This document shows positions 1 through 29,288 of a DNA stretch of 32,000 nt, in pieces (position 1 is the first letter of the stretch; every line of letters begins with the position of its first letter). The notes under the pieces were generated by a model. It was not told the origin of the DNA, ran no database searches, and was given only the letters and a program-made list of their open reading frames with translations. A program made the translations under genes and the position numbers. The stretch comes from Geotalea uraniireducens Rf4 (GTDB lineage: Bacteria; Desulfobacterota; Desulfuromonadia; Geobacterales; Geobacteraceae): the NCBI RefSeq assembly GCF_000016745.1, contig NC_009483.1:3630001-3662000 (forward strand), written 5' to 3'.

Positions 1-575
1 GACGCCTTGCTCCTTCCACTGCATGCCCACGGAGGCCTGGGAGACCCCTATTTCCTTCCAGCGGACGACCTGCCGTTTCCCCTCCTCGTAGCGGACCCGA
101 TCGTCGGCAGGACACCGGCTGTTGTATTTCAGCTTTTCTACTGTTTTGTCTGCATCTTCCGTCGAATCCACTGCGATCAGTTGGCCGGTCAGCTTGGGAT
201 TCTCCTGGTGCGCTGTTTTTAGTACTCCATTGAGCGCGGCCAGAAGATTTCCCTCCCCATTATTGGGAATTACCATCTGAACCAGAACTTTGCCTTTAGG
301 TTTCTCATTCAGCAGGCTCTGGATTTGTTCGAATACCTGCTGTGCATAGACCGGGAAGCGCTTTTCCATCTCCCGCTCTTCAGAGCTGATGATGAGGCTA
401 CGAACTCCGTCCATTTGAACTTCAACTCCTTCTTTCAGGACATTGCTCATCTGGCAAAGGATGACCAGATGCCCGGCATACTCCGGCGCTCTGCCTTCCT
501 TAACATCGGCCGGTGCCTCCCAGACCGGCTTAAGCACCAAGGTTTCTTGATCCGCCGCTGCGCCGACCGTGCCCT
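1..575 (-). other. Gene D KR3, N-terminal structural part only (cut by the window edge)
   Basis: Collinear with the pre-Rossmann regions of KR1 and KR2: ...VLVQMVIPNNGEGNLLAALNGVLKTAHQENPKLTGQLI...VRYEEGKRQVVRWKE. Confidence 0.6.
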
Positions 576-3500
576 GCCCGCCTTCGAGTACCCGGAAAGA
601 GAGTCCCCTCATACGGACGCAAACGCTCCCGTTCTCATCGCATAGATCGACATCAACGTTGTTAGCCCTGCCCGCGGCTTCGCCGCTGTTGCCGGACCGG
701 ATCACTGCCCACATCAAAGAGGTGCAGCGCTGGAGAATTTCAAGCTGGTGCAGAGTAGACGGAACCATCGGTTTTGGCGCCGCCATGCTGGCAGGCTCTC
801 CAACGATCAGGAGTGAGGCCTGCATTGCGGAATCGAGCATGCTGGGATGCAGAAGGTAATGATCCTCTGTTTCTGAAATCGAGGAAGGCAGCGAGAGTTT
901 TGCAAGCACAGTAGTGGATCCTGCGTAGGCCCTCTCGATGCCTCGATGTCTCGCGCCGTACTCGCTTCCCATCGTTTTAAACGCATCGTAACACTGGGCA
1001 GAACTCAACTCCCGGTCGCACTCTGATTGCACGTCCAGGAGATTTATAACCGGAATATCCGCAACCGGACCGAACAGGGCACTGCCCTGGCTGTTGATAA
1101 TGGTCTCAGCGCTATGCTCTGTCGATTCGCTGTAAATCTCATAGCCAATCTCGCCGTTATCTTTGGGGAAAAGGCCGACATGCACCTGAACCGGTTGGCC
1201 GGTTACGGTAATCGGCCTTGCCCACACGATGTTTTTAAGGGAGATACCCTTCTGAGACGGGTTCCATGACCCCGCGGCCCGGTCCACTGCTGCCCGGGCC
1301 ATCTCCAAATAAGCCGCCACGGGAAGAATTTTCTCGCCGCTCACTGCGTGGTCCGCCAGGAAAAATTCCTCCCCGGTAAAGATCGAGCTGAACCTTTGCT
1401 CGGTCAGGTCCGAGGTGTTCTGGTGCAGCAGAGGGTGAATCGAATGTGCAACCGGCAGTAGCGCCGATGCGCCGGCGGTCTGGGCGATCTCCGGCACCCA
1501 ATACCGGTCTCCGGCAAAGGGATAGGTGGGAAGGCTGATCCTGTGAGGCTTGGCTGCACCGTACAACCTGTTCCAGTCAAAATTGAGTCCCTTGACCCAA
1601 AGATCCAGAAGGCGCGCGTACTTTCCTTTGCTGACCCAGGCGTCGATTGTTTTTGCCATGTCCTCATCGACGGCGTAAAGCCATGCACTGTCGTTATCCC
1701 TGTCCCGTTTAACATGCCCCTTATGAAGATGTTCAAGGTCACTCTTGCCATCCAGATACCCACTCAGTTTCTCTTCCAGGTCCTTGATGGACGCGACAAC
1801 CATTGCCAATCGTGCGTCCATGGCTTCACGGCCAACCTGCAGCGTGTACGCCGCATCTGCCAGATCGGCATCGCTGAATTGCCGTTCCTGGATCGCCCCC
1901 AGCAATCGCCGCGCCTGCTCCTCAAGCCGCTTTTCATTCTTCGCCGACAATACGACGATCGCCGGATGCTGTGCGCTGACCCGGACCGGGATCCGCTCCC
2001 CTCCCTCAGGGATGTATTCTTCGATTACCACGTGAGCGTTGGAGCCCCCGGCCCCAAAGGATGAAATACCGGCGATCCGCGGATATTCCCTGGTCTGGCC
2101 GTTAATCTCGACGACCGGACGCTTCCATTCGGCAAGTTGCTGTTGAACCACGAAAGGCGTGGTACTGAAATCTATGTTCGGGTTCAGCACTTCGGAATGT
2201 AGCGACGGAGCTAACTGGCGGTGCTTGAGCTGAAGCAGCACCTTCGTCACCCCAGCGATGCCCGCCGCGCTCTCGCAGTGCCCGATGTTGGACTTTGCCG
2301 AGCCGATGGAGCAGAACTGTTTTTCCTTGGTGTGTTCCTGGAAGGTCTTGGCCAAGCCCGCGATCTCTATCGGGTCTCCCAATGAGGTCCCCGTGCCGTG
2401 GGCTTCTATGTAGCTGATGGTCCGGGGATGTACCCCGGATTGCTGCAACGCCCGCCCGATGACGCTTGCTTGCGCATTCGGGTTAGGGACCGTGTAACCG
2501 TTGGTCTTTCCGCCGTGATTAATCGTGGACGCCTTGATGACCCCGTAAATCTGATCTCCGTCGGCAACGGCTTTCGCCAGAGGTTTGAGCAGCACCGCTC
2601 CCACGCCTTCTCCTGGGACATAACCATCTCCGCCCTCGCCAAAACTCTCGCACCGCCCTTTGCTCGATACAAACTTGCCTTGGCCGAGAAACATGTACTT
2701 ATTGGGATGGACCGAGACGTTCACCCCACCGGCGATCGCCACCTCGCAGCCGCCCCGTTGCAGGCTTTGACAAGCCAGATGGATGGCGGTCAGCGATGAA
2801 GAACACATGGTGTCCACTGCCATGCTGGGTCCATGGAAATTACAAAAATACGAGACGCGGTTGGCTATCGACGAGGGATTCCCAGCAAGGGCGAGCGGCC
2901 TGCCCTTTGCCGTTTCCTGGGCTCCATAGAGTTGGTACTCCTCGTACATTACGCCTACGTAGACGCCCACATTGCCTTCGAGGCCACCACCCTGATGCAA
3001 CCCGAGCGCTTCACGCGTATATCCTGCATTCTCCAGAGTTTCATACACGCACTGTAAGAAGAGTCGCTCCTGCGGATCCATAATCTCGGCTTCGCGCGGC
3101 GAGATATTGAAGAACAGCGTGTCAAAGAGATCCACTCCATCCAGGAAGCCACCCCATTTGCTGTTGGTCTTTCCCTGTTTGTTCTTATCGGCGTCGAAGT
3201 ACAGACTATGGTCCCAACGATCTTTGGGAATCTCGGTGATGCAATCTTTGCCGTCCCGAAGATTCTTCCAGAACTCCCCGAGGTTTCCTGCTCCCGGATA
3301 GCGCCCTGAAACACCGATGATGGCGATATCTGACACCTCGTTGGCCTTTTCCTCCCGCGCTGCAGCGCGAGACGCGAACCGCGAAGGTCTGCGGTTGCTG
3401 GCGACCGGCTGCGCGGGTTTTGGCGCGGCGACGGAATTTTGGGAAGTATCGGCAGCAGCTGTGGGTGTCTGCTCGATCTCCAGTAATCCCATCAACTGGT

Positions 3501-6500
3501 CTCGGTGTGATTCAAGAAAGTACCCGGACAGTGCCTGAATGGTCTGGTATTCGAAGAAGAGGGTTTTGGGCAGTGAACCGAACACTTTCTCCAATTCATT
3601 GGTCAATTGCAGCACCATGATCGAGTCGATGCCGTATCTTTCCATCGGGGCATCCACATCGACCCGGTGTGCAGGCAGTTTGATACCCGCTGCAACAAGC
3701 TTCTTGAAATAATCCGAGGCTTTGTCCCGAAGCGAATCCTGGGTGACCTCCGGGGCTACCCCGTTTTCAACTACCGGAGAGACGTCCTTGCGAAGCTCCG
3801 CGCGCGACGGCTGTGCAATGATCCCTGCTGTGACGCGTTGCGGGTCGCCGTCTATTACCATTATCTGGTTCTTGCCGCAGGCCAATGCCTGATACAAGGC
3901 AGCAATCCCGGTTGCTGTCGGCAGGGGGATCATTCCCCTGGTCTGCAGCATCATCTGGCGGGTTTCTGCATCAACCTGCATCCCCCCCTCTTGCCAGAGC
4001 GGCCAATTGATTGAGAAGGTTCTCCCCCGGCGTTCGTTTCTGGCCACCAGGTCGTTGCGATATGCCGCGTAGGCGTCCATGAAGGCGTTCGCCGCGGCGT
4101 AGTCGGCCTGACCGAGGTTGCCAGCCGCTGCTGCGGCCGAGGAAAAGAGAAGCACTAGGTCAAGCTCCAGGTGCTGGCTAGCCTGATCCAGATGAACCAG
4201 TCCCCCGACCTTGGGGCCGAGGACCTCCAGGAACTCTTCATTTGTCTTTTTGATGATAAAGCTGTCTCGTGTCACGCCGGCAGCATGGATGATGCCGTTG
4301 ATGCTTCCGAACTCCTCTACGAGAGCCTGAATGAGACCTGCTACGGCGTCTTTCTGGCTGACGTCGACCTGCTGGTACTCGACCCGTGCACCCGATGCTT
4401 CCAACTCCCTCAATTGGGCGCGCTTCACCTCACTCAAAGGCGATCTTCCCGTGAGGATGAGCGTTGCGCCGGTAACCCTATTGGCTATCTCCTTGGCGAA
4501 TATCAGTCCCAGGTTGCCGGCTCCACCCGTAATCAGATAAACACCACGGTCTCTCCACGGGATGCTGGCTTGTTCCTGAAACGAGGCCACTTCGCGCCAG
4601 CCGCAAACGAACCGCTTGCCGCCTTGATACCGAATCTGCTGATCCAGCGCGCTTCGGCTGTTCCCTTTCAGTTTCTCTACGATTGATTCTGAAGTCTCCC
4701 GTGTTTCCACCTCGATCAACTGCCAGCCGAAATTGGGATTCTCAAGCCGGGCCGTCTTTAAAAGACCCGACAGCCCGCCGAAGAGTTGCCCATCTCCCTG
4801 GCCGGAGAACACGACTTGAACGAGTAGCTTCCCTTTAGACTTGCTTCTGAGAACGCTTTGGATTTCCTGAAACGCCTGGAGCGCATAGTCGCCGAACCGC
4901 TCCCCTATGCCTTTTTGCTCCGAGTGGAAGGAAATGCAGCGCGCCCCGCTCATCAGCCTGGTGACCTCTTCGTGGGTTAGGTCATCCTGCCCGCACAACA
5001 GCACAAGATGTTCCGCCTGATCGGCTGCGGTAGCTTCTTCGGCAACGCTCTGCTCATTCCAGACCGGCTCAAGCATCACGGTGCCGATGGCTGTTGAAGC
5101 TCCGGGTCGGACCTCTCCGTCCAGGCCTTTCAATGACAATCCTCGCATCGTGACCCGCACTTTGCCGTGCTCGTCGCTCACATCGATATCGAGTTGTTGC
5201 ACCGAGTCGCCTGGCTTGCTCCCCTTGCCGTAGCGAATCAAGGTCCACATGGAGGGCGTGCAGGTACCGAGGACGTCAAGCTCCTGCAGGGCAAAAGGCA
5301 CAACGGGTTTGAGCGCGCCGCCCTGGTCCTGCCCTCGTATCAACCCGATCGACGCCTGCAATGCCGAATCCATCAAACTGGGGTGCAGGACATACTGCCC
5401 GTCCGTTTGGGAAACCGAATCCGGCAGGGACAGTTTGGCCAATACCTGCCCCACACCGACATATGCTTCCACGATCCCCCGATGTCCCGGGCCGTATTCG
5501 AAGCCCATCTGTAGGAAGGCCTCGTAGCACTGGCTGGAGCTTAGGCTCTCTTGGGTGCACTCTGCCTGCAAGGCCTCGATATCCAGGGTCGACGTCTCGC
5601 GAGTCGACAGGAACTCCGCTGCCCCTTGGCCGTGCACCAACGGCTCAGCGCCATTTGCTTGGGAGTCGCTATATATCTCGTAGGTGATCTCCCCGGTGTC
5701 GTTGGGGACCAGGCCGATGTGTACACGTACCGGCTGAGCGTCGACTGCAATGGGGCGAGCCCAGACCACGTTCTTCAGGCGTATCCCCGCCTTAGGTTCT
5801 TCCGCTCCTGCGGCTTGCTCCAGTGCCGCTCGTGCCATCTCCAGATATGCCACCCCGGGGAGAACCTTCCGGCCCCGCACCACATGGTCAGTGAGGAAAA
5901 ATTCCTCGCCGGTAAAGGTGGAACTAAAGCGCTGCTCGGAGAAGTCCGAGGCATTCTGATGCAGCAGCGGATGTATTCTCTGCTCCTGGTACTCTGGCTT
6001 TTGTTCTCTGGTTTCCGGTACCCAATAGCGCTCCTTGGTGAAGGGATAGGTGGGCAGACTGACGCGACGGGGCTTCGGGTCGCGATACAGCTTGTTCCAG
6101 TCGAACTGCTGGCCCCTCACCCACAACCCGAGAAGCCTGGAGTATTTTCCCCGTTCCATCCACTTCTCGATGGCTTCCTGTAACTCTTCATCCATCGAAA
6201 AAACTGACAAGGCCTCTTTATTGGGCTTGACTTGGCCTCGGTAGAGCTTCTCTATGCCTTCCCGACCCTCACAATACTTGGTCAGGGCTTCTGAAAGCTC
6301 CTGGACCGATTGCGGTATCAGCGCCAGGCGTTCCTCCATGGCGTCTCTGCCGACCTGGAGGGTGTAGGCGATATTGACGAGATCGGCGTCGGAAAACTGC
6401 CGTTCCCGGATCGCGGCCACCAGCAGCTGCGCCTGTTCCTTGAGCCGTTCTTCATTCTTCGCGGACAGCACAATGATGGCGGGATTCGGGGGGGCGATCG

Positions 6501-9500
6501 CAACATGAGGCTGATCCTTGGGAACGTACTCCTCGATTACCACGTGCGCATTCGCGCCGCCGAAACCGAACGAGCTTACGCCGGCCCGGCGCGGCAGCTC
6601 GTTGCCGTTTCCGTCGCGCAACGCCTTCCATTCCCGGTTTTCCTGGACGATGTAAAAGGGACTGTTCTCCAGCTGGATGTAGGGATTGACGACATCGCAG
6701 TGAAGGCTTTTGGCGAGGGTTTTGTATTTGAGCTGCTGAATGACTTTGATGACGCCAGCGATTCCGGCAGCGAGTTCCAGATGGCCGATATTTGTCTTGA
6801 CCGAACCCAATCCGCAATGAGCGCTGGTGACTTCCGGTTCTCCCGTCGCCCGATACAGCTCTTTAAAGGCAGCCTTGAGACCGTTGATCTCTATCGGATC
6901 GCCCAGCTCGGTGCCCGTTCCATGGGCCTCTATGTAGCCGACCGTCCTCGGATCGATTCCTGCCGTGGTATACGCTGACGTCAGCAAGTCGGCCTGGGCT
7001 ACGGGGTTGGGCGCGGTGAGCGAATTGGCGCGGCCTCCGTGGTTCTCGGCAGTTCCCCGTATTACGGCGTGGACATGGTCGTTGTCGCGCTCCGCGTCCT
7101 TGAGCTTTTTGAGGAAGAGCACGCCGACCCCCTCGCCCCGGGCATACCCGTTGGCCCGGTTCGAAAAGGTTTTGCAGCGGCCGTCTTCGCAGAGCATTCC
7201 GGCCTTGCTGAAGCTTAAGTGAAGCTCAGGAGAGACGATGGTATTAACTCCGCCGGCGATGGCCATCTCACAGGTACCGTCTTGCAGTACGGCGACTGCG
7301 CGATGGATTGCGACGAGGGAACTGGAACAGGCGGTTTCAATGGGTTCGCTCGGGCCGTGGATATTGAGAAAATAACTCATTCGGTTCGGCCCAACGGAAG
7401 CAGCCACCCCGGTGGCGGAATATGCTTCAATGGCTACCTTGGCCCGAGAAAGCAGCTCGCTGTAGCCGCTGGTCGCGGTTCCGGCGAAGATGGCTGTATT
7501 GGTTCCGGAAAGGCTTTGAGCCGAGTAGCCAGCGTCTTCTATTGCCTTCCAGACATGGGTCATCAGCAATCGCTGGTTGGGATCCATGATCTCGGCTTCC
7601 CGGGGAGAAATCCCGAAAAACAAAGGATCGAACTCGTCAACGCCGTCGATAAAGCCGCCACATTTGGCGTTAGTTTTGTTCGCTTCTTTCGCGGGATCGC
7701 CGTAGTAGCGCCGCCAATCCCACCGGCTGTTCGGGATCTCCGTGATGCAATCCCTGCCGTCCATCAGGTTTTTCCAGAACTCATCCACATCCGATGCGAA
7801 CGGGAACCTGCCACTCAATCCCACAATTGCCACGGGCTCAAACGAAGACGCAGACGGTTTCGCTACGGCTGGCGCAGCCGTCACCGCAAACCGTGGGTGC
7901 CGTCGTGTGCCAGGGGTGGTTTCTTCAGCCCGGTCCTCCTCGGCGCGCGCGGCAGCCTTAGTCTGTACCTTTGTCTGAACATTTGTCTGTGCTCCTAATG
8001 ATGAGCTAAAGGCTGAACTGTGTGCTTCCACTAGATATTTGGCAAAGCGGCTGAGGGTCGGGTATTCGAAGAAAACCGTCGGAGCCAGCTCGAGCTTGTA
8101 TTCCCGGTTGAGCGTGTTGGCAAACTGAGTCAAGCTGACCGAATCAAAGCCGTAATCATTGAGTTCGACATCGGCATCGATATCTGCGAGCTTTACTCTC
8201 AGTAATTCGGAAACTGCCTGCATCAAAATGGACAGCACTTTTTCCTGCAGGCTGCTGGAATCGATCTCAGACAAAGTACCTGATGCTACGGGAACGGTTT
8301 TCGGCTGGGCACCTGCGGGAGTCATCAAGGAGTCGAGTTTTTGTCTGATGCGGCCAAGCCTGCCTTCCATAACCAGGACTTGTCCTTTTTCGCTGGCCAG
8401 GCCCTGATATAAGGCGCGAATGCCGGTTGATGTCTGCAGGGGGATCATCCCCCAGGACTGCAGCATCATCTTCTCGGCATCAGGATTTACCTGCATCCCT
8501 CCTTCTTTCCATAAAGGCCAATTTAACGACAGCGCCTTTCCTCGTCGTTGTCCTACCTCTGCCAATTCATTACGATATTGCGCATACGCATCCATAAATC
8601 CATTCGCAGCAGCGTAATCCGACTGGCCGGCATTTCCCAACACCCCCGCCAAGGATGAAAACAACAATAGAACGTCCAACTCCATCCCGCTAATTGCCTC
8701 TTCAATCGCCATTAATCCTTTTATTTTTGGACGTAATACTTGCTCAACGTCCTTTCTATTCTTTTTTACTATATAGCTATCCCTTATCACTCCTGCACTA
8801 TGGATGATGCCATGTACCCTTCCATACTTTCCTACTACCTCCTTAATAAGGCTCTCAATTTGGTCATTATCCGTGACATCTGCCTGGTAGTACTTAACTA
8901 TCGATCCATTAGCTTTCAAGCCTTGTATTATGGACTCTTTATCGGGAGTCAGTTCGGACCTTCCTGCTAATATTATTGTGCATTCCTTCAAGTTCTCAAC
9001 AATGTCCCTGGCAAATATTAGACCTAATCCGCCAACGCCACCGCTTATCAGGTACACCCCTTTTTCTTTCCACGGCAATCTGGGTATTTCTCTGGCGCTT
9101 GCCAGCTCTCTCATTTCGGCTATCGACCTGTTGCCAGCTTTATACTTTATAGATTTCCCCGCTTCGCTCCGCGCGTTATCTTTCAGTATCTTTGTTACTC
9201 TCTCAGCATCTTCAATGTCTTCGAGCTCTATCATTTGCCAATCGATATCGGGATGCTCCTGCCGTGCTGTTTTGAACAGTGCGGCATGCCCGGCGAACAG
9301 TCGTCCCTCTCCCGTAGCGAATACTACGGCCTGAATCAGGACTCTTCCGGGCTTTCTTTTTACTATGCCTTGAATCTCTTCGAGTATCCCGACCGTGTAA
9401 TTTTCATATCTTTCATCGATCGGCACTCCATCTTTTCCGGGCCGCAACGTAATGACCCGCGATCCTTCCAGGCTTGCTACTATCTCCTTTTCCGTTGCCG

Positions 9501-10428
9501 GCCCCGGTTCATACAGAACTACAATTTTTTCGGCGTATGCCTCCATCGGTATGGCAGTCGACGCTTTTTCTTCTTTCCATTCGGGATGAAACAGTATCAC
9601 CCTATTGTCCTTATCCTTTTCTCCACTCATCTCCCTTGCTGCCAAACCTTTCATACGGACGCAGACATTCCCTTCGTGATCACATAGGTCAATGTCGATG
9701 GACTCTAACCTACCCGCAGCCTTTTTTCCCTTTCCGTAGCGCGCAAAAGCCCACATGGATTCATGCCACTTTCCTTTTATCTCCACTCTTTCCATGGCAT
9801 AGGGCACTACTGCCACTTCGCCAAGTCCGTCAATCAAACCCATTGCAGCCTGCAATGCAGAATCCAGCATCGAAGGGTGGAGTACATAGTGGTCCGATTC
9901 GCTTTTCACACAATCCGGCATGCTAAGTTTTGCCAGAACTTCTCCATCCCTAGCATAAACCCTTTCTATGCCGCGATGCCCGGGTCCATACTCAATTCCC
10001 ATCTTGCCGAACGCTTCATAATACTCTTCCGACGACACCTCTCTGAGCCATCTCTGCTCCAGCATCGTTGAAATGGCTATTCTTTCCGTCTCACCTGCTT
10101 TGGTTACCTCAGCAGAACCATAGCTATGCGCAACAGTCTCTCCGTCAACATTGGTGCTGCAGACTTCAAAATCTATTTCACCGTTATCGTTCGCTGCTAC
10201 TCCGACAAATAGATTGACCGGATTATCTTCAACTACCACAGGCAAAAGCCACGCTACATTTTTCAACACTATTTCCTGCATTTGGCTTTTATCCAGGTTT
10301 AATGCAGACTCGACAGCTGCCCTCGCCATCTCCAGATAGGCAACCCCCGGCAATATCTTCTTACCATTTATTTTATGATCTTTAAGAAAAGATTCATTGC
10401 CTTTTAGGCAGCTTCTGAATTTCAACAT
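1..10428 (-). CDS. trans-AT polyketide synthase subunit, 3'-truncated by the window edge: DH-KR-ACP-KS-DH-KR-ACP-KS-DH-KR(partial)
   Basis: Absent from the ORF track because no stop lies in the window. ATG at 10428-10426 is preceded by GGAGGAG (10431-10437) and an in-frame TGA at 10444-10446. The frame is open to base 1 (3476 codons); any in-frame stop would have produced a listed ORF ending at 10428. My translation starts MLKFRSCLKGNESFLKDHKINGKKILPGVAYLEM. It contains KS motifs IETACSSSL/EAHGTGT/NIGHLELAAG and DTMCSSSL/EAHGTGT/NIGHCESAAG, KR GGVGGLG and GGAGNLG, and ACP GFDS and GIDS. Confidence 0.9.
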   Translation of the reverse strand, partial: MLKFRSCLKGNESFLKDHKINGKKILPGVAYLEMARAAVESALNLDKSQMQEIVLKNVAWLLPVVVEDNPVNLFVGVAANDNGEIDFEVCSTNVDGETVAHSYGSAEVTKAGETERIAISTMLEQRWLREVSSEEYYEAFGKMGIEYGPGHRGIERVYARDGEVLAKLSMPDCVKSESDHYVLHPSMLDSALQAAMGLIDGLGEVAVVPYAMERVEIKGKWHESMWAFARYGKGKKAAGRLESIDIDLCDHEGNVCVRMKGLAAREMSGEKDKDNRVILFHPEWKEEKASTAIPMEAYAEKIVVLYEPGPATEKEIVASLEGSRVITLRPGKDGVPIDERYENYTVGILEEIQGIVKRKPGRVLIQAVVFATGEGRLFAGHAALFKTARQEHPDIDWQMIELEDIEDAERVTKILKDNARSEAGKSIKYKAGNRSIAEMRELASAREIPRLPWKEKGVYLISGGVGGLGLIFARDIVENLKECTIILAGRSELTPDKESIIQGLKANGSIVKYYQADVTDNDQIESLIKEVVGKYGRVHGIIHSAGVIRDSYIVKKNRKDVEQVLRPKIKGLMAIEEAISGMELDVLLLFSSLAGVLGNAGQSDYAAANGFMDAYAQYRNELAEVGQRRGKALSLNWPLWKEGGMQVNPDAEKMMLQSWGMIPLQTSTGIRALYQGLASEKGQVLVMEGRLGRIRQKLDSLMTPAGAQPKTVPVASGTLSEIDSSSLQEKVLSILMQAVSELLRVKLADIDADVELNDYGFDSVSLTQFANTLNREYKLELAPTVFFEYPTLSRFAKYLVEAHSSAFSSSLGAQTNVQTKVQTKAAARAEEDRAEETTPGTRRHPRFAVTAAPAVAKPSASSFEPVAIVGLSGRFPFASDVDEFWKNLMDGRDCITEIPNSRWDWRRYYGDPAKEANKTNAKCGGFIDGVDEFDPLFFGISPREAEIMDPNQRLLMTHVWKAIEDAGYSAQSLSGTNTAIFAGTATSGYSELLSRAKVAIEAYSATGVAASVGPNRMSYFLNIHGPSEPIETACSSSLVAIHRAVAVLQDGTCEMAIAGGVNTIVSPELHLSFSKAGMLCEDGRCKTFSNRANGYARGEGVGVLFLKKLKDAERDNDHVHAVIRGTAENHGGRANSLTAPNPVAQADLLTSAYTTAGIDPRTVGYIEAHGTGTELGDPIEINGLKAAFKELYRATGEPEVTSAHCGLGSVKTNIGHLELAAGIAGVIKVIQQLKYKTLAKSLHCDVVNPYIQLENSPFYIVQENREWKALRDGNGNELPRRAGVSSFGFGGANAHVVIEEYVPKDQPHVAIAPPNPAIIVLSAKNEERLKEQAQLLVAAIRERQFSDADLVNIAYTLQVGRDAMEERLALIPQSVQELSEALTKYCEGREGIEKLYRGQVKPNKEALSVFSMDEELQEAIEKWMERGKYSRLLGLWVRGQQFDWNKLYRDPKPRRVSLPTYPFTKERYWVPETREQKPEYQEQRIHPLLHQNASDFSEQRFSSTFTGEEFFLTDHVVRGRKVLPGVAYLEMARAALEQAAGAEEPKAGIRLKNVVWARPIAVDAQPVRVHIGLVPNDTGEITYEIYSDSQANGAEPLVHGQGAAEFLSTRETSTLDIEALQAECTQESLSSSQCYEAFLQMGFEYGPGHRGIVEAYVGVGQVLAKLSLPDSVSQTDGQYVLHPSLMDSALQASIGLIRGQDQGGALKPVVPFALQELDVLGTCTPSMWTLIRYGKGSKPGDSVQQLDIDVSDEHGKVRVTMRGLSLKGLDGEVRPGASTAIGTVMLEPVWNEQSVAEEATAADQAEHLVLLCGQDDLTHEEVTRLMSGARCISFHSEQKGIGERFGDYALQAFQEIQSVLRSKSKGKLLVQVVFSGQGDGQLFGGLSGLLKTARLENPNFGWQLIEVETRETSESIVEKLKGNSRSALDQQIRYQGGKRFVCGWREVASFQEQASIPWRDRGVYLITGGAGNLGLIFAKEIANRVTGATLILTGRSPLSEVKRAQLRELEASGARVEYQQVDVSQKDAVAGLIQALVEEFGSINGIIHAAGVTRDSFIIKKTNEEFLEVLGPKVGGLVHLDQASQHLELDLVLLFSSAAAAAGNLGQADYAAANAFMDAYAAYRNDLVARNERRGRTFSINWPLWQEGGMQVDAETRQMMLQTRGMIPLPTATGIAALYQALACGKNQIMVIDGDPQRVTAGIIAQPSRAELRKDVSPVVENGVAPEVTQDSLRDKASDYFKKLVAAGIKLPAHRVDVDAPMERYGIDSIMVLQLTNELEKVFGSLPKTLFFEYQTIQALSGYFLESHRDQLMGLLEIEQTPTAAADTSQNSVAAPKPAQPVASNRRPSRFASRAAAREEKANEVSDIAIIGVSGRYPGAGNLGEFWKNLRDGKDCITEIPKDRWDHSLYFDADKNKQGKTNSKWGGFLDGVDLFDTLFFNISPREAEIMDPQERLFLQCVYETLENAGYTREALGLHQGGGLEGNVGVYVGVMYEEYQLYGAQETAKGRPLALAGNPSSIANRVSYFCNFHGPSMAVDTMCSSSLTAIHLACQSLQRGGCEVAIAGGVNVSVHPNKYMFLGQGKFVSSKGRCESFGEGGDGYVPGEGVGAVLLKPLAKAVADGDQIYGVIKASTINHGGKTNGYTVPNPNAQASVIGRALQQSGVHPRTISYIEAHGTGTSLGDPIEIAGLAKTFQEHTKEKQFCSIGSAKSNIGHCESAAGIAGVTKVLLQLKHRQLAPSLHSEVLNPNIDFSTTPFVVQQQLAEWKRPVVEINGQTREYPRIAGISSFGAGGSNAHVVIEEYIPEGGERIPVRVSAQHPAIVVLSAKNEKRLEEQARRLLGAIQERQFSDADLADAAYTLQVGREAMDARLAMVVASIKDLEEKLSGYLDGKSDLEHLHKGHVKRDRDNDSAWLYAVDEDMAKTIDAWVSKGKYARLLDLWVKGLNFDWNRLYGAAKPHRISLPTYPFAGDRYWVPEIAQTAGASALLPVAHSIHPLLHQNTSDLTEQRFSSIFTGEEFFLADHAVSGEKILPVAAYLEMARAAVDRAAGSWNPSQKGISLKNIVWARPITVTGQPVQVHVGLFPKDNGEIGYEIYSESTEHSAETIINSQGSALFGPVADIPVINLLDVQSECDRELSSAQCYDAFKTMGSEYGARHRGIERAYAGSTTVLAKLSLPSSISETEDHYLLHPSMLDSAMQASLLIVGEPASMAAPKPMVPSTLHQLEILQRCTSLMWAVIRSGNSGEAAGRANNVDVDLCDENGSVCVRMRGLSFRVLEGGQGTVGAAADQETLVLKPVWEAPADVKEGRAPEYAGHLVILCQMSNVLKEGVEVQMDGVRSLIISSEEREMEKRFPVYAQQVFEQIQSLLNEKPKGKVLVQMVIPNNGEGNLLAALNGVLKTAHQENPKLTGQLIAVDSTEDADKTVEKLKYNSRCPADDRVRYEEGKRQVVRWKEIGVSQASVGMQWKEQGV
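580..1445 (-). other. Gene D DH3 (motifs intact)
   Basis: HPLLHQNTSDLTEQRFSSIFTGEEFFLADHAVSGEKILPVAAYLEM; YLLHPSMLDSAMQ. Confidence 0.8.
2010..3335 (-). other. Gene D KS2 (Cys-His-His intact)
   Basis: IAIIGVSGRYPGAG, DTMCSSSL (Cys 2803-2805), EAHGTGTSLGDPIE, SNIGHCESAAG, GSNAHVVIEEY. Confidence 0.85.
3500..3740 (-). other. Gene D ACP2
   Basis: PMERYGIDSIMVLQLTNELEKVFG; the D-S dipeptide is encoded at 3622-3627. Confidence 0.8.
3830..5105 (-). other. Gene D KR2
   Basis: GVYLITGGAGNLG (~4507-4550); GNLGQADYAAANAFMDAYA (~4060-4125). Confidence 0.8.
5110..5975 (-). other. Gene D DH2 (motifs intact)
   Basis: HPLLHQNASDFSEQRFSSTFTGEEFFLTDHVVRGRKVLPGVAYLEM; YVLHPSLMDSALQ. Confidence 0.85.
5440..5975. 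repeat. Dispersed nucleotide-level repeat, copy 1 (N-terminal half of gene D DH2)
   Basis: By-eye alignment to about 20680-21215. There are 4 mismatches in the 60 nt of 5881-5940 versus 21118-21177. Other 60-nt blocks are roughly 78-90% identical. Confidence 0.75.
6525..7840 (-). other. Gene D KS1 (Cys-His-His intact)
   Basis: VAIVGLSGRFPFA, IETACSSSL (Cys 7327-7329), EAHGTGTELGDPIE, TNIGHLELAAG, GANAHVVIEEY. Confidence 0.85.
8020..8270 (-). other. Gene D ACP1
   Basis: ELNDYGFDSVSLTQFANTL; Ser codon 8140-8142. Confidence 0.8.
8340..9620 (-). other. Gene D KR1
   Basis: GVYLISGGVGGLG (9021-9060); GNAGQSDYAAANGFMDAYA (8581-8640). Confidence 0.8.
9625..10428 (-). other. Gene D DH1 (lacks its own HPLL segment)
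   Basis: MLKFRSCLKGNESFLKDHKINGKKILPGVAYLEM; YVLHPSMLDSALQ; ends ...CVRMKGLAAREMSG. Confidence 0.8.
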
Positions 10429-10454
10429 AACTCCTCCGCTAGATCAGACATATT
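10414..10454. repeat. Direct repeat, downstream copy (contains the gene D SD and start)
   Basis: 31 of 41 positions are identical to 10750-10790. The perfect 17-nt core AACTCCTCCGCTAGATC lies at 10429-10445. Confidence 0.8.
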
Positions 10455-10745
10455 TAAAACAAGGGGTTGAATCGACACGTTTTGCGGCGTGAGGGACTGT
10501 TTTCGCCACGAGGACGGCCCCAACGGTTTCTTCGAAGCAATCGAAGCGGTCGATCAGCTGGCATTGGCTGTCTTGCCTGTATGCAGGGGCAGCGATTTTT
10601 GACCGAGCGAGCCTTTCAAGCGAGAACAGCGTGGGGCTTGTCCGTACATTACCAGGCCCGCGGGTGACGGAGTGGCAAATGCCAAGACAACCGTGAAAGG
10701 AACTATGCCGACGGGAGGTTTGATTAATCTCTTTCCACAACGTTA
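10429..10745 (-). other. 317-nt spacer between gene C and gene D, nature unknown
   Basis: This is the only sizeable non-PKS sequence in the window. I counted 160 G+C in 10441-10740 (53%), against 37-47% in the adjacent 60-nt lines. It is bracketed by the 336-nt-period direct repeat. Confidence 0.5.
10431..10437 (-). promoter_or_regulatory. Shine-Dalgarno of gene D (GGAGGAG)
   Basis: Minus strand reads GCGGAGGAGTTATG. This SD lies inside the downstream copy of the 41-nt direct repeat. Confidence 0.7.
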
Positions 10746-13700
10746 CTAGGTCGAACTCCAACGAAACTCCTCCGCTAGATCCGATATGTTTTCATGCAAC
10801 AAAGGGTGGATTTGGCTGACGCTATGACTTCTTTCAAATTTCGTCCCCTTCATTCCTGCTACCCAGTATTTGTCTCGTGCGAACGGATAGCCTGGCAGAC
10901 TGATCTTACCGGGCTTCTCCTTCACATAGATCATGTCCCAGTCAATGGACAGTCCATTTACCCATGTATCAAGCAGTTTTTCATGGTTCTTTTCGCTGTT
11001 CCAGTTGCGAACCGCCTTTTGAAGTTCTTCCTCCGTGGCAGATCGGATCGATGCGTCCTTATTCCTTTTTGCTTGCCCGCGATATATGTCAGTACTATCT
11101 GTTTCATCTTTCAGATAGTTGTTGAGTTTTCCCCTAAGCTCCAGGATTGTACTGGCCGTGAAACCAAGCCTTTCCTCCATCGCCTCGCGCCCCACCTGCA
11201 AGGTATAGGCAATATCCGGCAGGTTTTCATCTCCTGGTCCGGACGTGGCCAGCCACTCTACCAGGTCTCTCACCCGCTCTTTCAATCGCTCTTCGTTCTT
11301 CGCCGACACGACTATCAGCGCAGGATGTTCTCTACTTGGTGTGGGTGGATTTTTCTTTTCTGCCACGTACTCCTCTATTACTACATGCGCATTCGCGCCA
11401 CCTGCTCCAAACGATGATATTCCTGCAATTCTAGGTGTTTCGCTGTTCCAATCTGTCAGTTCTCGCTGTACTTTAAATGGCGTGCTGCCGAACTCGATGT
11501 TCGGGTTCAGCTCAGCCGCATGTATGCTTGGCACCAACTGCTTATGCTTCATCTGCAATAGAACCTTCGTTAATCCCGATATTCCGGCAGCACTTTCGCA
11601 ATGCCCTATATTCGATTTCACTGATCCAATTGCACAAAATTGTGTTTCGTCGGTGTACTGATGGAACGCCCTGGTTAACCCGGCTATTTCAATCGGGTCC
11701 CCAAGCGAGGTGCCAGTCCCATGAGCCTCTATATAGCTGATGTCGCGAGCATTGAAGCCTGCCCTTTCTATCGCTTCCCGTATCACTTCTCCTTGGGCAG
11801 CGGGATTCGGGACGGTGTAACCGCTTGTCTTCCCACCCGAATTGATCATGCTTCCTCGTATAATTCCATATATCTGATCACCATCTTCTTCTGCCTTACA
11901 TAGGAGTTTGAGCAGCACAGCCCCCACTCCTTCCCCGGGGATATATCCGTCTCCGCCTTTACCAAAGCTTTCACACCTTCCCTGGCTAGACAAAAAGTTC
12001 CCCTTTGACAACACGAGATATTTATTCGGATGAATCGACAGATTTACTCCACCCGCGATCGCCGCATCGCATTCACCTCTCTCTATACACAGGCATGCCA
12101 AATGAAGAGCAGTCAGCGATGATGAACACATCGAATCTACCGCCATACTTGGCCCGTGGAAGTTGAACGAATAAGATACCCGGTTGGCTATCGATGCAGG
12201 GCTTCCCACTAAAGCCGTATTCTTTCCGACCTTTTGATCCTGTGCTCCGTAGAGCTGGTACTCCTCATACATTACTGCTGCAAACACACCGACTCTTGCA
12301 CCCAACCTGTCTTTCGTTTGGTCGTTTAAACGTTCTCTGGTATATCCGGCATCCTCGAGCGTGTGATACGCGCACTCCAGAAACAGTCTCTCCTGTGGGT
12401 CCATGGACTCTGCTTCTTTGGGCGATATATTGAAAAACAACGGGTCGAATTCGTCTGCTCCTGATATAAATCCGCCCCATTTACTGTAAATCTTTCCTTC
12501 TTTCCCCTTCTCCTCGTTAAAGTATTGCTTCCAATCCCATCTTTCCTCAGGTATCTCGGTTATACTGTCGGTACCCGCCTTCAAGTTGCCCCAAAACTCA
12601 TCCAGGCTTCTCGCTCCCGGATACCTTCCGGATACTCCAACGATGGCTATGGAACTATTTCTGGCATTCTTTTCCTCATAGCCTTCTGTCTCAGAAATCA
12701 AATCCTTCAGCAGAACAGGCAATTCGACTCTTTGCATTTGCACATTGATAAATTCCGCTACAACATCACCACCTTCAGTCACAACCATCGCGTCGTATGA
12801 TATGGAATCGGGGTTTTCTATCCTTACCTTCTTCACAACATATGCGTAATCTGCGACTCGTTTGAAAACTGTCATTTTCTCTATTTTTTCCAGCACGCTA
12901 ACCTTTTTCCCGAGACCATCCGTGTCGCAGAGCAAATAACAGATTTTCAACAGACGAGAGTCCGCTATTTTAGTTCGTTGCAATCCTGTATTAACACTGC
13001 CAGCCGTTTTGATATGGTAAATGGATGTTGTGCCATTGTATTTCCACTCAGCTTCTATCAAACAACTTTGTCCTGGGTCTCCGATTCTACGGCTAGTCAC
13101 TTCCTTAGATTTATTAATTATTGATTTTATATCTACTCTCTGAAGCCTTTCATGCTCATTTCTTTGATAAAATCCCGAGCAGACAGTCTCAGGTTTGGAT
13201 TCACCAGTTGCATGCTTGAAGACGTCAAACCCTAGTTTAGCTCCTTGTTCATTTAGCTTTACCTCTATCTCAACATTTTCGCTCTTCTTCAATCCTATGG
13301 GCCCGCCGGAAACCCGAACATCATTGAGCTCTACGGGGTAACCTCCGTAGCTATTTCCCAAATAACTTTCCACAGCAAGACAGGGATATGCCAATCCTAT
13401 GATTGCGCGGCGCCCATACATCAGATGGTCTTGCAAGAATGGCTCACTTCCATAAAACTTGTACTTGTTAGAAGATATAGTGGAGGCTACGTTTTTCGTG
13501 CTCGGAAAGCTTTGGGGTTGTGTTCCTCCTTCAGCTAATTTCTTCTGCAGGTACTTGGTCAAATCCAGAAAGTTACTATATTCAAACAATAAGCTTGGGC
13601 TTAGTGCAAGCTGGAAACTTTGCTCTATATCTTTGACTAACTCCAAAAGTTGAGAGGATTCCAAACCTAGCTCAAAGAACCCTACGCTATTCTCAAGCTG

Positions 13701-14693
13701 ATCCATTTGGATGTTGATGTATTTTGCAAATACTTTTTTCAAGGCCCTTTCTAAAGAGGTAACGCAGGAAACATTTGCTTCATCACCCTCATAATGATCT
13801 CTTGTCTTAACGCCTTCATGCCGTTCTATCTTTTCTACCTTTACCCGCTCAGGGTCCATCTGATCCCGGTCTTTCACTCGCTTTACCGTCAAGCCTTTCA
13901 GCTTTGCGACCAGGCGCCCTTCGGGATTGAAGAAGTCCATATCAATGGTGGCAATATCATTCACGGTGCGAATCAATGACCTGTCAATCCTCACATAACA
14001 GCGATCCAACAGTGGCCCTTTGCCATGGAACGACTCATAGGATATAGGCAGGTACATTTCCTCTTGGCTACTACCGGGCATCCTTTCCCGGATCAAGATC
14101 ATCGAGGACATTGCTGCGCCATCTAACAGTGCGGGGTGAAACATGTAATTCGCTGCGACCTCATTGTTTGCAGCCTCTGTGTTTACATCTACTAAACAAC
14201 CCGTGCTGGTTACATATATATTCCCTTTCGCCTTTATCATCCCCTGATGGACCAGTCCGACTTTGCTCGCTTGGGAATATATCGATTCCAGGTCATACTT
14301 CTTGGTGGATGCCTGCTTCACCGTTTCAACATCAATCAGCTCTTCAGGCATAACCTCGTTCAAGTGTAGTTCAACCGTTACAAATAGCTTCCTTTGCTTT
14401 GATGGTCCGGTGGCATTGTTTTCGAAGCTTTCAACACTAATTTTCCAGTATCTTTGTACATTCTCGAATGTAATTCTAAGTCTGACCGGGTTTTCATTGC
14501 TTACCACCAGCGGATTATATATGGCCAAGTTCTTGAAGCAGTGATCATCCCTTTGAATTTTCAGTTTCTCTTTCGCCAGTTGACTCAGCATATCAATGTA
14601 GGCCAAACCTGGCAGTACAGACCGTCCGAATATCTGGTGGCCTTTTACTATCGGATTATCCAAAGTCAAATTACACTCAAATATATTTTGCAT
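10746..14693 (-). CDS. trans-AT polyketide synthase subunit: DH-ACP-(extra DH-like hot-dog)-KS-flanking subdomain-short HPLL tail
   Basis: ORF track 10746..14804 (1352 aa, TTG-initiated). Preferred start is ATG 14693 (MQNIFECNLTLDNPIVKGH...) with GGGGAGAG at 14698-14705. This N-terminus aligns with the gene B N-terminus (MQDQYRISSNHPIVRNH). KS motifs: VDSMCSSSL, EAHGTGTSLGDPIE, SNIGHCESAAG. Confidence 0.88.
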   Translation of the reverse strand: MQNIFECNLTLDNPIVKGHQIFGRSVLPGLAYIDMLSQLAKEKLKIQRDDHCFKNLAIYNPLVVSNENPVRLRITFENVQRYWKISVESFENNATGPSKQRKLFVTVELHLNEVMPEELIDVETVKQASTKKYDLESIYSQASKVGLVHQGMIKAKGNIYVTSTGCLVDVNTEAANNEVAANYMFHPALLDGAAMSSMILIRERMPGSSQEEMYLPISYESFHGKGPLLDRCYVRIDRSLIRTVNDIATIDMDFFNPEGRLVAKLKGLTVKRVKDRDQMDPERVKVEKIERHEGVKTRDHYEGDEANVSCVTSLERALKKVFAKYINIQMDQLENSVGFFELGLESSQLLELVKDIEQSFQLALSPSLLFEYSNFLDLTKYLQKKLAEGGTQPQSFPSTKNVASTISSNKYKFYGSEPFLQDHLMYGRRAIIGLAYPCLAVESYLGNSYGGYPVELNDVRVSGGPIGLKKSENVEIEVKLNEQGAKLGFDVFKHATGESKPETVCSGFYQRNEHERLQRVDIKSIINKSKEVTSRRIGDPGQSCLIEAEWKYNGTTSIYHIKTAGSVNTGLQRTKIADSRLLKICYLLCDTDGLGKKVSVLEKIEKMTVFKRVADYAYVVKKVRIENPDSISYDAMVVTEGGDVVAEFINVQMQRVELPVLLKDLISETEGYEEKNARNSSIAIVGVSGRYPGARSLDEFWGNLKAGTDSITEIPEERWDWKQYFNEEKGKEGKIYSKWGGFISGADEFDPLFFNISPKEAESMDPQERLFLECAYHTLEDAGYTRERLNDQTKDRLGARVGVFAAVMYEEYQLYGAQDQKVGKNTALVGSPASIANRVSYSFNFHGPSMAVDSMCSSSLTALHLACLCIERGECDAAIAGGVNLSIHPNKYLVLSKGNFLSSQGRCESFGKGGDGYIPGEGVGAVLLKLLCKAEEDGDQIYGIIRGSMINSGGKTSGYTVPNPAAQGEVIREAIERAGFNARDISYIEAHGTGTSLGDPIEIAGLTRAFHQYTDETQFCAIGSVKSNIGHCESAAGISGLTKVLLQMKHKQLVPSIHAAELNPNIEFGSTPFKVQRELTDWNSETPRIAGISSFGAGGANAHVVIEEYVAEKKNPPTPSREHPALIVVSAKNEERLKERVRDLVEWLATSGPGDENLPDIAYTLQVGREAMEERLGFTASTILELRGKLNNYLKDETDSTDIYRGQAKRNKDASIRSATEEELQKAVRNWNSEKNHEKLLDTWVNGLSIDWDMIYVKEKPGKISLPGYPFARDKYWVAGMKGTKFERSHSVSQIHPLLHENISDLAEEFRWSST
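10749..10826 (-). other. Gene C C-terminal tail carrying the HPLL N-terminal segment of a DH (DH-docking-like)
   Basis: HSVSQIHPLLHENISDLAEEFRWSST-stop aligns with IHPLLHQNTSDFSEQRFSST of the intact DH domains. The rest of that DH starts gene D. Confidence 0.65.
10750..10790. repeat. Direct repeat, upstream copy (encodes NISDLAEEFRWSS of the gene C tail)
   Basis: Perfect 17-nt core at 10765-10781, exactly 336 nt (112 codons) from the other copy. Confidence 0.8.
11366..12655 (-). other. Gene C KS (Cys-His-His intact)
   Basis: IAIVGVSGRYPGA, VDSMCSSSL (Cys 12126-12128), EAHGTGTSLGDPIE, SNIGHCESAAG, GANAHVVIEEY. Confidence 0.85.
12715..13480 (-). other. Gene C second DH-like hot-dog domain of uncertain function, located between the ACP and the KS
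   Basis: KYKFYGSEPFLQDHLMYGRRAIIGLAYPC. His codon is at 13425-13427 and HxxxG is present, but the conserved Pro is replaced by Ile. I found no recognisable DxxxQ/H motif in the C-terminal half. About 250 aa. Confidence 0.55.
13535..13765 (-). other. Gene C ACP (GLES variant)
   Basis: SVGFFELGLESSQLLELVKDIEQSF (13651-13668 encodes GLESSQ). Confidence 0.7.
13876..14693 (-). other. Gene C N-terminal DH-type hot-dog domain, partner of the gene B KS0
   Basis: DNPIVKGHQIFGRSVLPGLAYIDM; YMFHPALLDGAAMSSM. Paralogous to the gene B N-terminal domain. Confidence 0.7.
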
Positions 14694-29286: not shown

Positions 29287-29288
29287 TT

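Follow-up and report, generated by a model that had tools for sequence, protein, structure and literature searches.

In trans-acyltransferase (trans-AT) polyketide synthases (PKSs), two types of junction have been characterised at which a module is divided between a ketosynthase (KS) on one protein and a dehydratase (DH) on the next: DHD tails and four-helix bundles. In the former, exemplified by GbnD4/GbnD5 of gladiolin (Jenner et al. 2018, as summarised in PMC9113145), a ~70-residue intrinsically disordered tail extends from a KS without a flanking subdomain (FSD) (PMC9113145); this tail is proposed to touch the DH directly, and the two genes overlap or abut. Four-helix-bundle docking domains are found at split-module junctions of trans-AT systems such as virginiamycin and macrolactin (PMC9113145), serving KS/DH as well as other intramodular junctions. 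Among cis-AT PKSs, the split DH of cremimycin, CmiP3/CmiP2, is a heterodimer built from two polypeptides (PDB 6K97; PMC12035518, PMC11284099), and provides a precedent for a working PKS DH whose single fold is spread over two proteins. Here we describe a KS/DH boundary in a 32,000-nucleotide (nt) window of Geotalea uraniireducens Rf4 (NC_009483.1; all coordinates are positions in this window, and all large genes lie on its minus strand), at which the first strand of a DH forms the end of one PKS protein, gene C, and the remainder of the domain opens the next, gene D. Since the split is inherited, kept by selection and recurrent in unrelated clusters, it looks like a working, so far undescribed subunit junction rather than damage; a literature search, with subscription journals outside its coverage, found no paper describing an HPLL-tail split. 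We consider it probable, with real room for doubt, that this is a genuine, inherited and selectively maintained division between KS-FSD on one side and DH-ketoreductase (KR)-acyl carrier protein (ACP) on the other, with a two-step history and a tail that docks.

The PKS genes comprise gene A (~31961 to 29289), gene B (29292 to 14677; 4871 amino acids (aa)), gene C (from an ATG at 14693 to a stop at 10748-10746; 1315 codons) and gene D, which starts at an ATG at 10428 and leaves the window stop-free through 3475 codons (>3475 aa). Pfam finds KS, KR, DH, ACP and RhiE-like KS linkers (PF22336/PF22621) on genes A-D and no AT family among the hits (the scan of genes A and B being limited to E <= 1e-5), a domain content that identifies the cluster as a trans-AT PKS. 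Gene C is ordered DH-like, ACP, KS, FSD, and gene D opens DH-KR-ACP-KS. The KS and FSD of gene C occupy 11106..12656 (KS ~12656-11517; FSD and linker ~11506-11106; PF00109, PF02801, PF16197, PF22336, PF22621), with PF16197 (residues 1100-1186) and PF22336 (residues 1165-1233) placed after the KS and followed by LPGYPF...YW. By translation the protein then ends ...IHPLLHENISDLAEEFRWSST-stop (in longer stretches, ...SQIHPLLHENISDLAEEFRWSST and ...LPGYPFARDKYWVAGMKGTKFERSHSVSQIHPLLHENISDLAEEFRWSST-stop). This tail (10749..10811) consists of the 21 residues after the KS-DH linker and aligns to the DH N-terminus itself, as a first-strand (HPLL) segment, a loop and an RFSST-like stub. In a profile of FSD-to-DH regions, LHENISDLAEEfRWSST of gene C pairs with lhentsdlseq.rysst, and the ancestral DH frame has therefore been retained by gene C right up to its stop, a TAG at 10746..10748 that is followed in the window by an in-frame TAA (CAA in L004, a metagenomic relative described below).

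Gene D takes up the domain where gene C leaves it. From its ATG (10428-10426) it reads MLKFRSCLKGNESFLKDH (in longer stretches, MLKFRSCLKGNESFLKDHKINGKKILPG and MLKFRSCLKGNESFLKDHKINGKKILPGVAYLEMA), in which KFRSCLKGNESFLKDH corresponds to RFSSTFTGEEFFLTDH, and its first DH (9619..10428) begins from the second strand, without HPLL, according to translation, PDB alignment and an AlphaFold2 (AF2) model. PDB matches (5j6o, 7zmf, 5hqw) begin at gene D residue 3, equivalent to chain residue ~25; the solved trans-AT DH constructs begin ~25 residues earlier, first strand included. A stop in the gene D frame lies 15 nt upstream of the ATG, so the HPLL segment cannot belong to gene D. The catalytic His18, the GxxYGP motif and the LDSALQ motif with its Asp are all present in this DH, both hotdog halves lie within gene D, and the two proteins overlap by about five DH residues (RWSST / KFRSC). 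Judged from these alignments, the cut lies in the loop that joins the HPLL strand, the first of the DH, to the second, RFSSTF. An earlier note on this DNA, made from the letters alone, had proposed just such a division of one DH between two proteins, and the profile and structural alignments bear it out.

That note had also likened the boundary to a KS-DHD/DH junction, a likeness that does not hold. As at DHD junctions, the module is split between a C-terminal KS and an N-terminal DH, the upstream tail may touch the DH directly and the DH has no added N-terminal docking element. However, the KS of gene C retains its full FSD, the tail is 21 aa rather than ~70 and is a recognisable DH first strand, and genes C and D stand 317 nt apart where DHD genes overlap or abut. 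Assignment to the DHD type was rejected, the locus having neither a KS devoid of its FSD nor a ~70-residue disordered tail. A four-helix-bundle pair was rejected likewise: although such pairs also serve KS/DH junctions, gene D starts directly in its DH, with no helical N-terminal element (~30 residues) before it, and at the end of gene C stands HPLL rather than a C-terminal element of the ...FYEQLIDEVMNDAISIDSAV... type (...AISIDSAV...). Many KS-FSD relatives of gene C do end in a helical C-terminal element, and many N-terminal DHs of the gene D clade begin with a matching one, the relatives that bear it starting ~55-72 residues before the gene D position. The cremimycin DH resembles the C/D case in spreading one fold over two polypeptides, but there the cut falls between the hotdog halves (~146 + 169 residues) of a cis-AT enzyme, whereas here only the first strand (~20 residues) lies upstream, in a trans-AT system.

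The other junctions of the cluster are of a different kind. At A/B (29270-29330) and B/C (14660-14760), a KS without an FSD carries a tail of 60-65 aa with a common LPAPVL; stop and start are 2 nt apart at A/B and overlap by 17 nt at B/C. By these features both match DHD junctions as published. In genes B and C, the DH-like domain that follows such a KS/DH split starts 16-18 residues ahead of the catalytic His, with HPLL missing, and this DH start position is all that C/D shares with A/B and B/C. For the N-terminal DH-like domain of gene C (13734-14693), the nearest matches are the PksL domain 5e1v (E 3e-42) and 5kku, the ‘N-terminal dehydratase from the difficidin assembly line’. In both, the alignment begins at about residue 9-15 of the matched chain, so an HPLL strand is also missing from the start of N-terminal DH-like domains that follow KS splits.

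The same cut recurs elsewhere. We searched for relatives of the gene C FSD that end just after HPLL, and found three with readable context. In L006, ...LHPLLHAYKKEPTF-stop (longer stretch ...KLHPLLHAYKKEPTF-stop) is followed after a 99-nt gap by MKKHQFNSIYNGKEFFLTDH, the start of a 4442-aa open reading frame (ORF); in L007, ...LHPLLHRNSTSELIK-stop (longer stretch ...KLHPLLHRNSTSELIK-stop) overlaps MFQFSSTFTGEEFFLTDH through a TGATG; and in L008, from Bacillus wiedmannii (GCA_002557845.1), ...LHPLLHQNTLNLSDSLGASQTHS-stop (longer stretch ...FLHPLLHQNTLNLSDSLGASQTHS-stop) is followed by 20 nt containing GGAGAG and then by MKFTQRFTSTFTGYEFFLADH. P0182 is probably a fourth case. As at C/D, the upstream protein of these junctions is KS-FSD-...HPLL with 9-19 further residues before its stop, and the downstream DH starts at the RFSSTF strand; in every independent case HPLL itself stays at the end of the upstream protein. 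Counted from the His of HPLL, the analogous tails are 13-23 residues long, and beyond HPLL their sequences differ. Unlike C/D, the gaps in L006, L007 and L008 range from a 1-nt overlap to 99 nt, with neither a duplicated tail nor a long spacer, and no bracketing repeat was found at the L006, L007, L008 or P0182 junctions. The four are not orthologues of the window, given that the nearest DH homologues retrieved have only ~40-44% identity to that of gene D. On these comparisons, cutting the domain after HPLL and before RFSSTF is a natural and recurrent way of splitting it, albeit a minority architecture. Other candidates were set aside: P0016, P0066 and P0011 (loci L001-L003) seem to start inside a DH, but the PKS genes of their contigs are chopped into many pieces, likely by long-read frameshift errors, and P0171 (Burkholderia gladioli) is cut by the contig end. 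In L006 (690-760), an HPLL-like IHVQPLIQ precedes the LHPLLH tail by ~15 residues, shares its frame, and may be a second degraded copy within the linker.

We infer that the most likely role of the HPLL tail is docking through completion of the DH fold: the tail would insert as the missing edge strand of the gene D double-hotdog, so that the DH is completed and the subunits are docked in one step. A single-chain model of the tail fused to the DH is compatible with such strand complementation, placing the HPLL block at a predicted local distance difference test (pLDDT) score of ~88 and the redundant FRWSST-ML overlap in a low-confidence loop (pLDDT ~57), and superposing on 7zmf and 5hqw with target-normalised template modelling (TM) scores of 0.92-0.94. 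The alternative is that the split is real and tolerated and the tail vestigial, the gene D DH working, or being dispensable, without its first strand, and the subunits meeting through other contacts such as KS-ACP or KS-DH surfaces. Modelled alone, the gene D DH is indeed predicted with confidence, N-terminus included (pLDDT 87.6, with residues 2-8 as first strand); the DH-like domains in genes B and C begin where it does, with no HPLL in cis, and the variable length and post-HPLL sequence of the analogous tails would also be expected of a relic. On the other hand, no independent case is cut before HPLL, the solved PKS DH constructs all contain the first strand, and of the two copies of the tail-coding DNA at this locus, described next, the translated one keeps the consensus while the untranslated one has lost the His, a Leu and a codon. 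We regard a vestigial tail as unlikely, if deserving of serious attention. Beyond this locus, we put forward tentatively, at somewhat less than even confidence, that an HPLL tail and its DH form a distinct, recurrent class of trans-AT interface that docks by fold complementation, unlike DHD or helical-bundle pairs, the KS protein lending the DH after it a first beta-strand. The window would then keep a living tail beside the fossil of an older one, and with them a trace of the junction's remodelling.

The DNA encoding the tail is present twice. Segments 10414-10454 and 10750-10790 are identical at 31/41 positions and contain an exact 17-nt core (10429-10445 and 10765-10781), which has no third occurrence in the window and is its sole exact 17-mer pair within 1 kb, while a repeat search returned 39 nt at 82% identity with a spacing of 336; the 31/41 match, 17-nt core and 336-nt spacing reported in the earlier note were all reproduced. 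Local alignment lengthens the repeat to 10810-10753 against 10470-10417 (58 and 54 nt, gaps totalling 4 nt), with a score of 44 compared with 18.0 +/- 2.3 and a maximum of 30 in 300 shuffles. Copy 1 (10753..10810), translated within gene C, shows 0 differences from L004 and retains I-H-P-L-L-H-x-N-x-S-D-L, every conserved residue. Copy 2 (10417..10470) is a decayed DH 5' end whose 3' part has become the initiation region and first codons of gene D; read in the gene C frame it gives IQPLVLNMSDLAEELC-stop, a second, degraded HPLL segment in which His has changed to Gln, Leu to Val and His to Leu and one codon has been lost, so the repeat spans the HPLL codons too. Its former Ala-Glu-Glu codons supply a Shine-Dalgarno (SD)-like GGAGGAG (10431..10437) that sits 2 nt before the gene D ATG, its GGAGG core 4 nt before, and is kept unchanged in L004. 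The suggestion that these codons serve as the SD of an ATG read in another frame is thereby upheld. Copy 2 also contains a nine-codon ORF (10423-10452; MSDLAEELC-stop; ATG TCT GAT CTA GCG GAG GAG TTA TGT TGA) that ends overlapping the gene D ATG, lacks a separate SD and is complete in L004 as well; it is probably no more than the fossil tail, although it may couple translation to gene D.

Could the resemblance be coincidental, each segment being simply a DH 5' end that paralogous modules have conserved? Where the DH is intact, the 5' ends in the rest of the window read IHPLLHQNTSDL(S/T)EQRFSSTFTGEEFFLTDH, and over 60 nt any two of them agree at 73-90% of DNA positions. Similarity alone is therefore no proof of duplication, and the 77% identity between the copies is in itself unexceptional; the same split without a repeat in other clusters points the same way. 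Yet both copies have Ala-Glu-Glu (DLAEE) in place of Ser/Thr-Glu-Gln, an extra codon (TTT/TTA) and Ile/Met replacing the near-invariant Thr of NTS, states absent from four paralogues and from the consensus of 53 homologues, and they are closer to each other (77%) than either is to any paralogue (63-72%). Moreover, two DH 5' ends 336 nt apart with no module between them would need a rearrangement anyway. Because of these shared derived states and this mutual closeness, copies 1 and 2 are, on the sequence comparison, true duplicates, and coincidence is very unlikely. The earlier note would have counted the repeat as coincidental if homologues were split without it; such homologues exist in three or four clusters, yet the copies are duplicates nonetheless.

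Duplication does not make the repeat the origin of the split. Because the same split exists elsewhere with no repeat, the repeat was not the cause of the fission; it looks, from the sequence, like a secondary scar, the fossil of an earlier, tightly coupled junction overlaid by a later duplication. The idea that the repeat is the footprint of gene fission therefore survives in part, the locus being a rearrangement scar, and fails in so far as it made the repeat responsible for the cut. Neither does the proposed insertion of about 336 bp into a KS-DH gene reverse cleanly, since deleting 336 nt yields ...EELC-stop and no fused ORF. Between GAGGAG and AAATTC, copy 2 has 8 nt with no counterpart in intact DHs, 3 in common with copy 1 and 5 of its own, and the gene D ATG falls within them; only removal of 341 nt (10749 joined to 10407) restores the ORF, with a canonical DH N-terminus, and at least one further 5-nt change is therefore required. 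The stop and start that overlap in copy 2 (..EELC-stop over ATGTTGA) resemble the TGATG overlap of L007, and copy 2 is accordingly suggested to be the fossil of an older coupled junction. We infer a history in which an earlier fission would have produced a tail whose stop overlapped the DH start, as in copy 2 and in other clusters; a later rearrangement would then have duplicated the tail-coding segment and trapped filler DNA between the copies, after which the upstream copy may have stayed in frame and been conserved while the downstream copy retained its initiation function only.

That the split has been inherited is secure, as are the sequence observations set out above. The gene D start of metagenome contig Ga0074193_1000088 (L004), found in a metagenome scan, is 96% identical in protein; positions 1-5725 align to window 16147-10458 at 93.1% and positions 5971-12990 to window 10458-3427 at 98.0%. 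The junction in L004 is built alike, with the gene C tail and stop, the spacer, copy 2, the SD and the ATG all present; the tail carries zero substitutions between the lineages, and both repeat copies are identical in the two. Over 288 nt the spacer differs by 22 mismatches and by three 1-nt indels, a divergence of 7.6% plus indels that is close to that of nearby four-fold degenerate sites (10.7% and 17.6%). The relative also carries a 245-nt insertion (5726-5970) resembling a miniature inverted-repeat transposable element (MITE), absent from the window, at an AT-rich site between window positions 10459 and 10458; it has 22-nt terminal inverted repeats (5724-5745 / 5954-5975; 86% complementary) and lies inside the decayed HPLL of copy 2, 30 nt before the gene D ATG. 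To judge by this insertion, the 5' half of copy 2 is dispensable.

Selection has acted on both sides of the cut. Nonsynonymous to synonymous ratios (dN/dS, Nei-Gojobori, window against L004) come to 0.17 in gene C, where dS is 0.215, to 0.137 in the split DH, where it is 0.125, and to 0.13 in the remainder of gene D; across the flanking coding sequence they span 0.13-0.26, and there are no stops in the 1315 codons of gene C or in the 3475 (window) and 2330 (L004) codons of gene D. By these estimates purifying selection has acted on genes C and D from the divergence of the lineages onwards, by which time the split already existed. A pseudogene or decaying cluster was rejected on the same ratios and on reading frames intact in both lineages. 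The repeat copies differ by ~20%, more than the lineages do, and the duplication therefore predates the lineage split. The earlier note had suggested looking in orthologous clusters for a contiguous KS-DH free of the extra segment; no contiguous orthologue was found, and the sole close relative carries the same split. A genome-contig scan for orthologues found no relative, and in protein searches the best hits were at 40-54% identity, among the matches listed only fragments under ~600 aa.

The gap itself might be read as a recent inactivating lesion, an insertion having broken a KS-DH gene and left the assembly line dead or decaying. From 10429 to 10745 it comprises 317 non-coding nt with stops in all frames, of which ~275 nt (10471..10745, minus strand) form an orphan spacer between the copies, and no function could be detected for it: Rfam gave no match at E<=1 and a promoter/terminator scan no signal on the minus strand, the RNA fold was not significant (z-score -0.8), and Pfam had no hit in six frames. 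Its six-frame concatenate had no protein homologue among 5.8 billion sequences, it showed no similarity to the window's own PKS genes or proteins (tblastn/blastn, profile), and both a plasmid blastn and an exact 30-mer look-up in genome contigs were negative. Its GC content is 53%, with a GC skew opposite to that of the flanking coding sequence. The mobile element in the same gap of L004 would also suit a lesion. However, dN/dS is 0.14-0.17 on either side across a dS of 0.1-0.2, the giant ORFs are intact in two lineages, the strong SD and ATG are conserved, and the ~20% difference between the copies makes the event older than the lineage split. We consider inactivation highly improbable, a shade more so than coincidence.

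Several more specific origins of the spacer were rejected. That the spacer is what remains of a KS-DH linker, decayed since a whole module was deleted, lacks support: a profile of 35 FSD-to-DH regions matches the two HPLL segments only, with no LPxYPF/RYW remnant. Tandem duplication of a 336-nt unit is countered by a spacer unlike the first ~95 codons of gene D. An excisable element, intron, intein or bypass would leave a stop after excision of 336 nt, gives no ribozyme signal, and sits ill with a relative carrying indels and a 245-nt insertion in the same gap. The window spacer has no terminal inverted repeats of a transposon or MITE, only an internal palindrome (10515-10552), and the flanking repeat, at 54-58 nt and ~77% identity, is not the short and exact duplication that a MITE target site would give.

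An assembly or sequencing artefact, whether a mis-join through a short repeat or frameshift errors such as those behind several metagenome ‘split DH’ proteins (L001-L003), is scarcely credible, and what the earlier note had named as fatal to its reading can be set aside: L004 is an independent sample, as its own single-nucleotide polymorphisms, indels and MITE-like insertion in the same structure show, the copies are non-identical and so are not one sequence assembled twice, and ORFs of 4871 and >3475 codons elsewhere in the window are error-free.

A number of points nevertheless weigh against a maintained, docking split. The 21 unsubstituted codons of the tail are too few to demonstrate selection on it, the more so where divergence across the locus is patchy. 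The fusion model of tail and DH, being single-chain and driven by an alignment of intact DHs, is not independent evidence. None of the 150 best representative DH relatives (0/150) starts at the gene D position, and N-terminal DHs of the clade normally carry ~55 extra residues. With no contiguous orthologue, the order of events is reconstructed rather than observed, and the last ~15 nt of the copies align ambiguously (10/14 when ungapped), although the version with a 5-nt gap agrees with the protein consensus. Finally, a 317-nt gap in which no promoter was detected is unlike the tightly coupled A/B and B/C junctions.

The surrounding cluster shows signs of a mosaic past. A low-GC block at ~8300-18800, which takes in gene C entirely, together with the end of gene B and the opening module of gene D, has a third-position GC of ~0.45-0.55 compared with 0.65-0.8 elsewhere, and synonymous divergence between the window and L004 is 4-9x higher within it than in the high-GC part of gene D (dS 0.10-0.25 vs 0.027), if patchily so; this suggests recombination with a diverged allele or an imported block of modules. 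Past its first DH, gene D continues as KR-ACP-KS-DH-KR-ACP-KS-DH... (3..9618, minus strand, by Pfam) until it exits the window, and its second DH module (~5500-5930) has many exact 17-mers in common with the third DH module of gene B (~20850-21165), with 90% identity at the DH 5' end, an indication that a module was recently duplicated, or that gene conversion took place, inside the cluster. At gene B residues ~1163-1200 (~25700-25810), a DH-like domain has FFVNEPVGTG in place of the FFLTDHVVxG of active DHs; lacking the catalytic His, it is probably an inactive or repurposed DH.

Success in the engineering of polyketide assembly lines hinges on subunit junctions, and an HPLL tail, if it works as proposed, would add to the two characterised types of trans-AT KS/DH split a third, small and portable, at which modules could be split or re-joined along a natural cut. 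The handover from a KS with its FSD intact to a DH on a separate protein would then be explained as well. The locus is, in addition, a rare dated record of the evolution of a gene boundary, in which a working and a decaying copy of the same 58 nt stand side by side and the start signals of gene D have been recruited from former codons. The recurrence of the split in a cultivable Bacillus makes the idea directly testable.

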